Virus record (IMG/VR): IMGVR_UViG_3300023220_000531
Location: 1-58,157 of that record
Origin: a virus
Lineage: Duplodnaviria; Caudoviricetes
Direction: 5' to 3' (one strand)
Length of the DNA: 58,157 nt
Both the position numbers and the translations under genes were made by a program. Positions 6,336 through 13,858 of the stretch are shown piece by piece. A model generated the notes under the pieces. That model saw only the letters and a list, made by a program, of their open reading frames with translations. It had not been told where the DNA came from and searched no databases. Every line of letters starts with the position of its first letter. The first letter of the stretch is position 1.

Positions 6336-6653
6336 ATGTTATTAACTCAATTCATCAGTTCTTATTCTGTATACATCGATGCTGGTCTCATTGGGACATT
6401 CGGTGGCCTAGCTAATTATTTCTACTACATCGATAAACAACATTTAAAATTTAAATTCAGACATCTTTTTACCACATCAATATTGGCATTCTTCATGGGA
6501 ATTGTCGGTTATGTCTTCCTTCCCACTGGACCCAATAAGCTGGGTTACCTGATGCTGGTAGGGTTTTTCTGCTATCCAATAATTGATTTTCTTTCTAAGA
6601 ATTTGGATAGGGTATTAAAGGCGATAATTAAGCGAGGGACTTTTGGCGACTGA
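6336..6653 (+). CDS. Holin (LydA-like, 3 TM)
   Basis: GTFGGLANY motif, three TM segments, basic C-terminus. Confidence 0.75.
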   Translation: MLLTQFISSYSVYIDAGLIGTFGGLANYFYYIDKQHLKFKFRHLFTTSILAFFMGIVGYVFLPTGPNKLGYLMLVGFFCYPIIDFLSKNLDRVLKAIIKRGTFGD

Positions 6654-6803
6654 TGGAACTTTGCACCAAAATTCACCATTAACGACAATCACATCACATT
6701 TGATTCCAACCAGAACAGTCCTTTGAATATGCCTAACCGTCTCGGTGCTAAAGCTGATTAAGATCAAGAAAATTACTATTTTTATTAGTGTGGTTTTAGC
6801 CAT
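6615..6803 (-). CDS. Small exported or membrane protein, last gene of the leftward arm
   Basis: N-terminal hydrophobic segment; overlaps the HNH stop and the holin 3' end. Confidence 0.4.
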   Translation of the reverse strand: MAKTTLIKIVIFLILISFSTETVRHIQRTVLVGIKCDVIVVNGEFWCKVPSVAKSPSLNYRL

Positions 6804-7311
6804 TTAAACCAGGTCCGTTAGCCCTATGCCATGCACCGTGGCAACTGCGGCACAACCATCTTACCGACAGAAGCAATGAATAGTCGTCGTGATGGCCGTG
6901 CAATGTGTCTGTATTGTCGCATTTCGAACAATTATCCGGCCTTGTCAACCAACCACATTTTATTGCGTTGTTAACTGCGGTTTTTGCTTTAGTCTTGATT
7001 GGGTTTTTTGCGGTATATTTGGCTTTACTACGCCTGTATTCATCAGTCTTTTGATAAGCTGCCTGATAGTTTTTGTATTTGTCGCTTTTTTGATGTTTGG
7101 ACACAGTAAGATTTCTGGCTTCGCTCTTTAGATAAGCTGCTCTGACGCTCTTACCTTTAGCACTGTTCACGTATTCAGTCTCAAACTTCTTTCTACACGT
7201 CTTGCATGCATACTGAAGACCGTCTTTTGATTTGGCTCGCCTACTAAATTCAGATAGTGGAGTGGGATTTTTACAAGTGGTGCATATTTTAGTAGAATCA
7301 ATATCAGACAT
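6796..7311 (-). CDS. Zn-finger / HNH endonuclease (paralog of 13206..13703)
   Basis: CTTC...GLQYACKTC N-terminus; CSKC...HGHHDDYS...VRWLCRSCHGAWH C-terminus. Confidence 0.85.
   Translation of the reverse strand: MSDIDSTKICTTCKNPTPLSEFSRRAKSKDGLQYACKTCRKKFETEYVNSAKGKSVRAAYLKSEARNLTVSKHQKSDKYKNYQAAYQKTDEYRRSKAKYTAKNPIKTKAKTAVNNAIKCGWLTRPDNCSKCDNTDTLHGHHDDYSLLLSVRWLCRSCHGAWHRANGPGLNG
7270..7298 (+). promoter_or_regulatory. Antisense sigma70 promoter inside the HNH gene start
   Basis: TTTACA-N17-TAGAAT; same position in the paralog. Confidence 0.65.
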
Positions 7312-7375
7312 TTTGACCTCTGCTATAGGTTGAAATGATTAGAATAGAGCCAGTTGACGCTGGCTTTGTTCGTTT
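7305..7375 (+). ncRNA. Candidate antisense sRNA covering the HNH start codon and RBS
   Basis: Hairpins UUUUGACCU/AGGUUGAAA and GAAUAGAGCCAG/CUGGCUUUGUUC pair fully (with G-U) only on the + strand; covary with the paralog. Confidence 0.6.
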
Positions 7376-7384
7376 ATTATAGCA
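7376..7384 (-). promoter_or_regulatory. Extended -10 promoter of the HNH gene
   Basis: TGCTATAAT on the minus strand about 65 nt upstream of the ATG; paralog has TGTTATAAT. Confidence 0.65.
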
Positions 7385-10998: not shown

Positions 10999-11168
10999 TA
11001 TTTTTTACCTGCTACAAAATCAATCTGTTTATGTTTGTTGAATTCATTTAGCCAAGCCGACTTCCATGGTTGCTTTTTGAACGGGCAATGGCTGACTGAT
11101 GTCGATAATCGAGCATGAGCCCAACAATCGGTGAAAGGATTGCGTCTGGACTTTTTATCCTTTGACAT
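10998..11168 (-). CDS. Rmf/CrpP-fold small protein (56 aa)
   Basis: MSKDKKSRRNPFTDCWAHARLSTSVSHCPFKKQPWKSAWLNEF matches the Rmf pattern (basic N-terminus, CP[YF]....R..WL.G[WF]). Confidence 0.55.
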   Translation of the reverse strand: MSKDKKSRRNPFTDCWAHARLSTSVSHCPFKKQPWKSAWLNEFNKHKQIDFVAGKK

Positions 11169-12375
11169 TGAGAACCTGCCGCAACCTATAAACAATTTCA
11201 ACAAGGTCATCTTGAGCCGCCATAACAGCGCCGATATCTTTGTAAGCTGCTGGGCTTTCATCGAGGACGTCTTTGTCTAGCCTTGCTTCAATTCCTTCCA
11301 TAGCAGCTGCATGCTGTTCGAGAGTAATCTCCCTGTTTGCTTGGGTTCGCGACATTACACGACCTGCACCATGAGAACAGCTACAGAAAGAGTCTTTGTT
11401 GCCTAACCCTCGAACGATGAACGACCCTGTACCCATTGAGCCAGGTATAATCCCTAAATCGCCTGTGCGAGCCCTAACGGCCCCTTTACGAGTGATCCAC
11501 ACGTTTGAACCGTAATGATTTTCGCGGCTGATGTAGTTGTGATGGCAGTTAACCGCTTGGTCGGTGACTGAGAACTCTGGCAAGGATTTATGCAGTACAC
11601 TTAAAATTGCCTCCATCATTGCCTTTCTATTTTCCAAAGCATAATCCTGCGCCCACCCAACTGCATTAACGTAATCGTCAAATAATTCTGTGTGCTCCAC
11701 CAGGTAAGACAGGTCTTTATCCGCGAGATACTTATCAATGTGGTATCGTTCCATTTCTTCCTTAGCTTTCTGGATGAAATAAGTACCGATTCTATTGCCG
11801 ACACCTCTTGATCCAGAATGCAGCATAATCCAAACAGCGTCATTTTCATCAAGGCATAATTCGATAAAATGATTACCGGTTCCAAGCGTTCCCATGTGAG
11901 ACCAGTTATTAAATGATTTGGCCTTTGGATGCTTTGTCAAAATATCGCAGTAACGGTAATACAGCGCATCCCATCGCTTTATATGAGGGTTATTGTCTCC
12001 CCATCTGCCGCGATCATTTTTGCCACCGTTATCAGTTCTGCCATGGGGAACGGCTTGTTCAATCTGACATCTTATTTCGTGAAGATTATCTGGCAACTGA
12101 TCGGCTCTCAACGTGGTCTGGTAGGCCATCATTCCACAACCTATATCGACACCTACAGCAGCTGGGACAATAGCTCCCTTGGTAGCTATCACTGATCCGA
12201 TAGTCGCACCCATACCCCAGTGCACATCAGGCATAGCGGCAACGTGTTTGTGAATAAATGGAAGGGATGCGACATTTTCTAGCTGTTCCTCTGCGCGCAC
12301 ATCCAGCAATACACCGTTAGTCCAATGCTTAATTGGCACGTTTTTAGTTTCTTTGTAAATATATCCGCCCATCAC
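11155..12375 (-). CDS. rtcB: RNA ligase RtcB (2',3'-cyclic or 3'-phosphate to 5'-OH)
   Basis: MPDVH, VGVDIGCG, GTGNHF, HSGSRG, HHNY, RKGA, PGSMG, SHGAGR and DESPAAYK motifs; strongly E. coli RtcB-like. Confidence 0.97.
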   Translation of the reverse strand: MMGGYIYKETKNVPIKHWTNGVLLDVRAEEQLENVASLPFIHKHVAAMPDVHWGMGATIGSVIATKGAIVPAAVGVDIGCGMMAYQTTLRADQLPDNLHEIRCQIEQAVPHGRTDNGGKNDRGRWGDNNPHIKRWDALYYRYCDILTKHPKAKSFNNWSHMGTLGTGNHFIELCLDENDAVWIMLHSGSRGVGNRIGTYFIQKAKEEMERYHIDKYLADKDLSYLVEHTELFDDYVNAVGWAQDYALENRKAMMEAILSVLHKSLPEFSVTDQAVNCHHNYISRENHYGSNVWITRKGAVRARTGDLGIIPGSMGTGSFIVRGLGNKDSFCSCSHGAGRVMSRTQANREITLEQHAAAMEGIEARLDKDVLDESPAAYKDIGAVMAAQDDLVEIVYRLRQVLNVKG

Positions 12376-12964: not shown

Positions 12965-13171
12965 TTAACATTCACCAATTGGACCCGCAGCACCATAACC
13001 TCTGGTACCATGGGTTATGATAAATTTGTGCCCTTCAATGCATTCGATGAAATAGTTAATACCAAGCTCTGATTTCTTCCAGTTTCGTTCGGTAGTCTGT
13101 TTTCGCCTATCCTCATCCGCTTTACATCCGATAAGCGCAAATAACAACACAATAAATATTACCTTTTTCAT
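12965..13171 (-). CDS. Small lipoprotein
   Basis: MKKVIFIVLLFALIGC lipobox; CIEGHKF motif. Confidence 0.8.
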   Translation of the reverse strand: MKKVIFIVLLFALIGCKADEDRRKQTTERNWKKSELGINYFIECIEGHKFIITHGTRGYGAAGPIGEC

Positions 13172-13205: not shown

Positions 13206-13703
13206 TTAACCGTTTAACCCAGGCCCGTTTTCAGCGTGCCAAGCAATATGACAGGTGCGGCACAGCCAGCGCACCACTAACGGTAGAGCGTAATCGTCAT
13301 GGTGAGCCTGTATCTTTCCTGTGCTAGGGCATTCCTCACATGTGGTAGGTTTTTCCATTCTGCCATCACGTATTGCGTTATTGATTGAGTTTTGGGCTTT
13401 TATCTTGATTGGGTTGGCTGATTGATATTTGGCGTCATATCTGCACTGAACAAGCTTCCCCGCCGCTGTCTTGCGATATTTGGCATGAGAGCGCTTTCCA
13501 GCATCAGTCTTGGCATATTTGGTACTAGCCTTGGCTTGAGTAGCTTTGCCTGCCTCTGTCTTCGCATATCTGGATTGAGAAGCGCGACTGCATCCTTTGC
13601 AAGCAGATTGCAGTCCATCTTTTCTGCCGGAGTGCTTATTGAACTCAGAAAGTGGCTTATATGTACACTGGGAACATTTTTTAGTAACATTCGTTTCAGG
13701 CAT
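13206..13703 (-). CDS. Zn-finger / HNH endonuclease (paralog of 6796..7311)
   Basis: CSQC..DGLQSACKGC; CEEC..AHHDDY..VRWLCRTCHIAWH; identical NGPGLNG C-terminus. Confidence 0.85.
   Translation of the reverse strand: MPETNVTKKCSQCTYKPLSEFNKHSGRKDGLQSACKGCSRASQSRYAKTEAGKATQAKASTKYAKTDAGKRSHAKYRKTAAGKLVQCRYDAKYQSANPIKIKAQNSINNAIRDGRMEKPTTCEECPSTGKIQAHHDDYALPLVVRWLCRTCHIAWHAENGPGLNG
13662..13690 (+). promoter_or_regulatory. Antisense sigma70-like promoter inside the HNH gene start
   Basis: TGTACA-N17-TAACAT, at the same distance from the start codon as in the paralog. Confidence 0.55.
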
Positions 13704-13765
13704 TTTAACCTCTGCTTTAGGTTGAAATTGTTAGGGCGGGTCCAGCACTAACTGGATCTGTCCGA
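13697..13765 (+). ncRNA. Candidate antisense sRNA covering the HNH start codon and RBS
   Basis: Hairpins UUUUAACCU/AGGUUGAAA and GGGCGGGUCCAG/CUGGAUCUGUCC fully paired only on the + strand. Confidence 0.6.
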
Positions 13766-13774
13766 ATTATAACA
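13766..13774 (-). promoter_or_regulatory. Extended -10 promoter of the second HNH gene
   Basis: TGTTATAAT on the minus strand. Confidence 0.65.
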
Positions 13775-13858
13775 TAATCCAGCTTACTGTTGATTCTTCC
13801 TCTGAACATTTAATGCAAATCTGTTTTACTTATAACTACAGGCTCTATATCAGATAAA

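Follow-up and report, generated by a model that had tools for sequence, protein, structure and literature searches.

A probable cis-antisense RNA cassette of the RepX/SymR/PtaRNA1 kind at the start of two phage endonuclease genes

The window analyzed here is a complete viral record of 58,157 bases with direct terminal repeats (IMGVR_UViG_3300023220_000531). It carries two paralogous genes for endonucleases of a likely Zn-finger/HNH type, each preceded by a similar short leader. We found that the secondary structure of this leader is conserved on the strand opposite to the nuclease gene. The leader is most likely a cassette for a cis-antisense translational repressor RNA of a known kind, resembling RepX, SymR and PtaRNA1, and placed here on phage nuclease genes. 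We estimate a probability of about 0.68 that an antisense RNA is made from it and represses the nuclease mRNA. The production of this RNA, the position of its 3' end and the repression itself are inferred from the sequence.

Nucleotide similarity between the two loci extended from a CTAA core (7342 in copy 1, 13734 in copy 2) to the stop codons, and blastn found none in the flanks. Of the 31 nucleotides (nt) upstream of the ATG, 27 were identical between the copies, far above the level of the coding region, and the two proteins shared 43% identity (E 3e-48). The first-pass annotation had described paralogous genes with a common leader and unrelated flanks, and this description held. A scan of the 58-kb window found only these two copies of the cassette. 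Their parts were as follows.

6796 to 7311, minus strand: copy 1 open reading frame (ORF) of the likely Zn-finger/HNH-type endonuclease, 171 amino acids (ORF list; phrog_2340).
7376 to 7384, minus strand: copy 1 sense extended -10, TGCTATAAT, 4 nt upstream of the base of stem-loop B (read from the sequence).
7270 to 7298, plus strand: copy 1 putative antisense sigma70-like promoter, TTTACA-17-TAGAAT, within codons 5-14 of the HNH gene (promoter scan, 10/12).
7305 to 7380, plus strand: copy 1 predicted antisense RNA, about 70-76 nt, both ends inferred (promoter and hairpin geometry).
7309 to 7337, plus strand: copy 1 predicted stem-loop A, 11 base pairs (bp) including two G.U (fold).
7342 to 7371, plus strand: copy 1 predicted stem-loop B, 13 bp, followed by GUUUAUUAUA; terminator-like (fold; terminator scan match).
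13206 to 13703, minus strand: copy 2 ORF of the likely Zn-finger/HNH-type endonuclease, 165 amino acids (ORF list; phrog_2340).
13766 to 13793, minus strand: copy 2 sense promoter, TCAACA-16-TATAAT with TG (promoter scan, 10/12).
13662 to 13690, plus strand: copy 2 weak antisense promoter candidate, TGTACA-17-TAACAT (read from the sequence; 8/12, unreported by the scan).
13697 to 13767, plus strand: copy 2 predicted antisense RNA (fold; sub-threshold PtaRNA1 match).
13699 to 13732, plus strand: copy 2 predicted stem-loop A, followed by linker U13733 and stem-loop B at 13734 to 13763 (fold).

The extended -10 boxes that had been annotated in both leaders were present, at 7376-7384 and, as TGTTATAAT, at 13766-13774. 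The copy 1 box was absent from the promoter scan output because its -35 is poor. The sense promoter and the putative antisense promoter face each other, about 80-90 bp apart. An antisense promoter at the same spacing had been claimed for each copy; the claim stood for copy 1, where the scan reported it, and for copy 2 it stood in spacing but not in strength, and is weaker there because the candidate scored 8/12 and went unreported. Stem-loop A of copy 1 is complementary to both the Shine-Dalgarno (SD) sequence (7317-7320) and the AUG (7309-7311), and its loop contains CCUCUGC. The linker between the stem-loops of copy 1 is AUUA; in copy 2 a GUUAG core typical of the family lies at 13731-13735 and is shared with the stems.

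The strand preference of the structure was clear in both copies. We folded 76-nt regions on both strands and compared each with 200 shuffles. On the plus strand, which is antisense to the genes, the minimum free energy (MFE) was -29.0 kcal/mol for copy 1 (z -5.72) and -30.2 kcal/mol for copy 2 (z -4.71), and none of the 200 shuffles was as good. The corresponding sense-strand values were -15.9 kcal/mol (z -2.47) and -14.8 kcal/mol (z -0.89). When the 12 pairs of stem B were compared between the copies, five were the same, two had changed on both sides and five had changed on one side through G.U. All of these pairs were kept on the plus strand, whereas the sense strand would have two A.C mismatches in one copy and three in the other. 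Two points of the first-pass annotation were therefore confirmed: the hairpins pair in full only on the antisense strand, as judged by MFE, z and the use of G.U instead of A.C, and stem B differs in sequence between the copies (7 of 12 pairs) while its pairing is retained.

The same architecture was found elsewhere, in other phage contigs and a metagenome-assembled genome (MAG) by leader-pattern scans, and in a phage-like plasmid by BLAST. The shared core, CTAACCAAnTCAACCT...AGGTC...ATGGCT, lies between the sense -10 and an opposite-strand TANNNT. Read along the gene, the order is a -10 (TATAAT or TAGAAT), a long hairpin of free sequence, and CTAACCAAnTCAACCT-N7-RGGTC...ATGGCT. The genes headed by the cassette belong to several Pfam families.

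GIY-YIG with NUMOD3: locus L074.
HNH_3: loci L073/L075.
Rha: locus L035 with its identical copies, and locus L045.
Bro-N: loci L033 and L055.
No Pfam family, two ORFs: locus L058b, and loci L098/L099 (a MAG contig).

The earlier idea of an HNH-specific unit therefore does not hold, since GIY-YIG, Bro-N and Rha genes carry the cassette as well. R1, a covariance model built on stem A and the linker, matched the window exactly twice, with 58.2 bits for copy 1 and 52.1 bits for copy 2; the next best score was 8.8. Run over 98 other loci, R1 also found members outside its training set. Two more were detected in L075 (33.4 and 23.8 bits), giving that record three copies, and one in L009 (20.9 bits), where it heads a second, unrelated HNH gene adjoining a homologue of the window nuclease. 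R1 scored 29.9 bits on L101, which had first been found by BLAST. This locus is from a 41-kb plasmid of Pusillimonas sp. T7-7, the stretch examined carries phage head genes, and the cassette heads the gene of a 247-residue protein, which shares 35% identity with the window nuclease in the N-terminal zinc-finger region. A blastn search of plasmids with the leader of a relative returned only the Pusillimonas record.

Copy number was low throughout: two in the window, three in L075 and one per record in five others. These one to three copies per record led us to reject a general multi-copy promoter cassette, and the single copies in the five records imply that it does not serve these phages as a general promoter motif. 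L045 and L058b have the promoter and hairpin in common but not the gene, and L035 and L045 have the gene in common but not the promoter and hairpin. The conserved core therefore behaves as a recombination joint.

Some observations concern individual relatives. On the MAG contig, two cassettes (L098 4982-5062 and L099 5743-5823) lay 761 bp apart with identical 57-residue ORFs, and their stems B differed by compensated changes; this contig contains many repeated palindromes, which produced spurious mir-1265 matches. The hairpin B stems of L074 (1892-1925, GIY-YIG) and L101 (1505-1538, HNH) also differed by compensated changes. The loop of this hairpin, GUGCUnCCAACAC on the sense strand, was conserved between the two, and it may be a site of loop-loop contact. 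Directly upstream of the Rha-heading cassette, on the opposite strand, a tRNA gene (48.3 bits) was located in L035 (3422-3492) and L058 (4473-4543).

The preference for the antisense strand extended to the whole family. The antisense MFE was lower than the sense MFE in all 15 distinct cassettes, relatives included, with values such as -37.2 versus -19.7, -43.7 versus -30.9 and -36.6 versus -25.2 kcal/mol. For stem A in 11 sequences (154 cells), the paired fraction of cells was 89.0% for the antisense and 69.5% for the sense strand; one position was G.U on the antisense strand in all 11. In an alignment of 15 distinct sequences fitted to the model, half of the 14 stem A pairs had changed on both sides, and none of 500 shuffles reached any of the five measures. 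Stem B was scored by a strand-symmetric rule, with G.U and A.C treated alike and the misregistered L074 row left out. Across the cassettes it contained 10 internal G.U pairs on the antisense strand and no internal A.C; two A.C were found beside the loop. The covariation check on both strands, which had been proposed as a way to tell the antisense from the sense reading, came out on the antisense side for both stems.

A second conserved feature was found inside the coding regions. In 11 of 13 gene contexts, an antisense TANNNT stood 6 nt (seven cases) or 7 nt (four cases) before AGNCAU, the complement of codons 1-2, and the other 43 offsets together had only six occurrences. The exceptions were TAGACG (L073) and TATTGC (L075b). 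In the window, the antisense -10 of copy 1 lies 7 nt before AGACAU, at the conserved position of the family, and the TAACAT of copy 2 lies 7 nt before AGGCAU. The hexamer is conserved inside unrelated ORFs, and the window copies have it in a different reading frame from the others, which suggests that the constraint acts at the nucleotide level. In the GC-richer L073 and L074 the hexamer fixes the codon CTA, which is a rare codon in E. coli. The conserved TANNNT looks like a -10 element, and an RNA from there would begin at the base of stem A. The putative opposite-strand promoter appears to be placed for a start at the first codons of its target.

The leader might alternatively act on the mRNA only, with hairpin B as a 5' stabilizer and the second hairpin hiding the ribosome-binding site (RBS), in the manner of the T4 and Aeh1 leaders and with no antisense RNA. 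RBS hairpins of -4.6 to -8.6 kcal/mol were indeed predicted on the sense strand of all members, the copy 1 leader reached a z of -2.47, and such hairpins are a published pattern at phage endonuclease genes. In homing endonuclease genes of T4, Aeh1 and marine phages, an RBS-sequestering hairpin with an internal late promoter is described as limiting translation (PMC2677866). Those leaders resemble the cassette in being conserved, structured and directly before free-standing endonuclease genes. However, they act on the sense strand and carry TATAAATA, whereas the cassette pairs on the opposite strand and both of its promoters are sigma70-like. An endonuclease leader of the T4/Aeh1 type was therefore rejected, as the pairing favours the other strand and the T4-type late promoter TATAAATA is absent from both leaders of the window. 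Wherever the inside of the stems departs from Watson-Crick pairing, the sense strand has A.C and the opposite strand has G.U. The sense fold of copy 2 does no better than shuffled sequence (z -0.89), and the TANNNT conserved inside unrelated ORFs would be left unexplained. We consider it unlikely that the leader works through the mRNA alone. The hairpins may nevertheless have a role on the mRNA itself.

The plus-strand hairpins could also serve only as an insulator, that is, a one-way terminator that shields the upstream genes from opposite-strand transcription and takes part in no regulatory pairing with the nuclease mRNA. Stem B of copy 1 with GUUUAUUAUA scored as a plus-strand terminator, and one relative (L075 8050) has a U7 tail. 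However, many members have no U tract. The insulator would also leave unexplained why stem A lies exactly over the SD and AUG and covaries, and why a -10 is conserved at the place for an RNA start at the base of stem A. A purely insulating function is quite improbable on these grounds.

PeSLs were rejected as well. These portable units of a promoter and a stem-loop flank accessory genes of T4-type phages and are described as recombination points (PMC2839356, PMC4122927). In a PeSL, the stem-loop comes before the promoter and ends transcription from upstream; the units are reported to be dense in hyperplastic regions (PMC2839356). The hairpins of the cassette, by contrast, lie downstream of the -10, and the window holds two copies.

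Comparison with Rfam linked the cassette to known antisense RNAs. At gathering thresholds there was no match in the whole window. At a relaxed threshold, every family that aligned to the whole cassette was a cis-antisense RNA. PtaRNA1 (RF01811; cut-off 47) matched copy 2 over its full model with 34.8 bits (E 1.2e-5 in a 201-nt search, 8.5e-7 per genome) and L074 with 25.7 bits, and ctRNA_pND324, the best match on the plus strand of copy 1, scored 24.9 bits there (E 0.086). Plasmid_R1162 (RF00043; cut-off 55) scored 32.6 bits on L074, 30.3 on L073/L075 and 25.9 on L101. SymR (RF01809; cut-off 61) scored 28.9 bits on the antisense strand of L101, and a search of the window with SymR gave no match. 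The Rfam comparison suggested at first pass thus yielded matches to cis-antisense RNAs, with every score below its gathering cut-off, so the cassette is placed in no named family.

As far as can be read from the letters, the cassette has the architecture of RepX, SymR and PtaRNA1, and it may be distantly related to these RNAs. The proposal that the cassette encodes its own antisense RNA, about 70 nt long and opposite the RBS and start codon, is supported by the strand-specific G.U pairs, the covariation, the conserved opposite-strand -10 and the sub-threshold Rfam matches. The accompanying suggestion that the unit is of an undescribed kind was not borne out, because the predicted architecture is that of RepX/R1162, SymR and PtaRNA1. 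It is very improbable that the structure forms in DNA, as a template-strand hairpin that serves recombination, nicking or homing and not RNA control: the conserved core is a swap point (L045/L058b, L035/L045) and G.T pairs are tolerated in DNA too, but the cassette matches RNA covariance models of known antisense RNAs, promoters are placed at both of its ends, and there is no evidence of single-stranded intermediates in a phage with direct terminal repeats.

Several points weigh against an antisense RNA. The weaker RBS hairpins of the sense strand occurred in all members. A good antisense -35 was present in copy 1 only (copy 2, 8/12), and most relatives had no convincing antisense -35 or TG. 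A terminator-like tail followed stem B in copy 1, and none was flagged in copy 2. The cassettes all scored below the Rfam gathering cut-offs; moreover, the RF00043 search of the window gave no match, and PtaRNA1 matched copy 2 only, with nothing on copy 1 at E<=10. Most relatives were found with patterns derived from the window, five members being recovered through the covariance model or BLAST. The conserved positions of stem A are thus partly fixed by ascertainment. The 15-sequence alignment of stem A, being fitted to the model, leans towards it.

If an antisense RNA is made as we propose, the cassette could work in the following way. The sense extended -10 would start the mRNA at the base of hairpin B. 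From the opposite-strand promoter, whose -10 lies within codons 5-7 of the nuclease gene, an antisense RNA of 70-80 nt would start roughly opposite codon 2 and fold into two stem-loops. Stem-loop A would complement the start codon, spacer and SD, and stem-loop B would act as terminator and stabilizer, with a tail overlapping the sense -10. Transcription of the antisense RNA would end at this 3' hairpin, close to the sense -10, and would thereby spare the upstream genes. Being fully complementary to the 5' untranslated region and start of the nuclease mRNA, the RNA would pair with it and block ribosome loading, and the pairing might perhaps also trigger cleavage of the duplex. Such a block of initiation would act on any transcript with the gene, including read-through from upstream, whichever promoter had been used. 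The facing promoters may add transcriptional interference. A potentially self-damaging nuclease would in this way be kept low, and its gene could be carried at low cost in the phage genome.

Gene direction in the window is plus to ~6.6 kb, minus from 6.6 to ~23 kb and plus thereafter. Both nuclease genes lie in the minus-strand arm and are co-directional with their neighbors. Their products matched phrog_2340, annotated as 'endonuclease', with E 3.4e-37 for copy 1 and 3e-42 for copy 2. Four N-terminal Cys, HH..Y, WLC and H...H were invariant in an alignment of eight homologues. The AlphaFold model of copy 2 had a predicted local distance difference test (pLDDT) score of 91. Its C-terminal domain aligned weakly to the Gme HNH structure 4h9d_B (Z 5.4, root-mean-square deviation 3.9, 68 residues aligned), and residues ~90-165 gave further weak matches to T5 SciA (Z 4.1) and McrA (Z 3.5). 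A Foldseek search of this model against the PDB returned nothing at E<=0.001, a search of PDB sequences with the copy 2 protein gave no match, and a Pfam scan of both proteins at E<=0.1 gave no HNH model, only two weak unrelated matches. The HNH-type label is accordingly likely for both proteins but not proven.

The searches turned up no close relative of this phage or of its nucleases. Megablast against phages found none close. Among viral contigs, copy 1 found no relative and copy 2 found 11 loci at 34-48% identity; genes neighboring the nucleases found none, or reached identities of at most 49%. A protein-alignment search of metagenome contigs gave 22 distant loci, and a leader-pattern search of metagenome contigs gave none. 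The distant homologues of the window nuclease in L001-L010 have a leader unlike the cassette, and several directly follow the end of an ssb-like gene. In L002, L003, L005 and L009 (~1400-1500), the homologue immediately follows a gene that ends in ...D(D)IPF*, resembling an ssb tail, and the leader has a hairpin across a TATA-like box followed by AGGAG.

A small ORF with a hydrophobic N-terminus lies 3' of each HNH gene, at 6615-6803 (minus strand) and 12965-13171 (minus strand). The one after copy 1, of 62 amino acids, starts within ATGGCTAA and overlaps the copy 1 stop; the one after copy 2, of 68 amino acids, begins MKKVIFIVLLFALIGC, which resembles a lipoprotein signal. Neither matched a family in PHROG or NCBIfam. 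The minus-strand arm also carries an RtcB-type RNA ligase gene (11155-12375, minus strand; phrog_1075, E 3e-147). The identity of its product to RtcB of large Mesorhizobium, Erythrobacter and Sphingobium phages was up to 67%.

What keeps free-standing homing endonuclease genes from harming the phage that carries them has been learned chiefly from T4-type phages, where sense hairpins and late promoters are responsible. If the antisense reading is true, the cassette on HNH, GIY-YIG, Bro-N and Rha genes would be a second general solution, and three separately catalogued RNA families would be linked. Our literature search found no description of antisense control at phage homing endonucleases; supplements and most subscription journals were outside its scope. 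A broader, speculative idea, which we would sooner doubt than accept, is that RepX, SymR, PtaRNA1 and the phage cassettes are one ancient portable module of facing promoters and an antisense RNA, including the first ~6 codons and recombining at the core. It would be a standard harness, with which self-damaging selfish genes could become established in new phages, plasmids and chromosomes, and would cover HNH and GIY-YIG homing endonucleases, Bro/Rha-type genes, plasmid rep genes and type I toxins. The cassette could also help to annotate uncultured phages, as a marker of selfish genes.

Among known systems, sar/ant of phage P22 has a short two-hairpin antisense RNA with a promoter facing that of its target, and the RBS is covered. 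FinP/traJ of F-like plasmids resembles the cassette in the same respects, as a short two-hairpin antisense RNA with a facing promoter that covers the target RBS. In both systems the partner proteins differ from those of the cassette, and we found no sequence or model match to either. SymR/SymE of E. coli is like the cassette in that a cis-antisense RNA acts on the mRNA of a non-membrane toxin; SymE is chromosomal and SOS-controlled. SymR is reported to repress SymE by pairing with the translation initiation region (PMC2943612). For the idea of an addiction module, raised at first pass, SymE/SymR would be the analogue. PtaRNA1 is likewise a two-hairpin antisense RNA, of 72 nt, over the start of its partner ORF, and has spread by horizontal transfer. 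Its partner belongs to the XCV2162/Plasmid_toxin family, whereas the partner here is a likely HNH-type nuclease (Pfam scan at E<=0.1). PtaRNA1/XCV2162 is described as a computationally proposed type I toxin-antitoxin pair (PMC5367252).

RepX, the copy-control RNA of the IncQ plasmids pRSF1010/R1162, is reported to be 75 nt long and antisense to repA-repC, where it covers the RBS and start codon. Two stem-loops are joined by a GUUA linker, and the short 3' tail has no U run; mutations in it raise copy number, and FinP is said to be similar to it in fold and length (PMC8136791). A review table (PMC12361487) lists IncQ without an antisense system, which conflicts with that account. RepX and the predicted RNA of the cassette are alike in lying opposite the RBS and start codon of a first gene, in the two stem-loops and in the linker, GUUA being close to the GUUAG of the copy 2 junction and the family consensus. 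They differ in the inner part of stem A and in the target, which for RepX is a plasmid replication operon and not a phage nuclease. The GGAG...AUGGCU of the RF00043 consensus matched the mRNA-sense strand of L074 and L073, and the family may therefore be modelled on the repA leader strand and not on RepX. This consensus carries CUAACCA, GGAG and AUGGCU, and therefore shares the core of the cassette.

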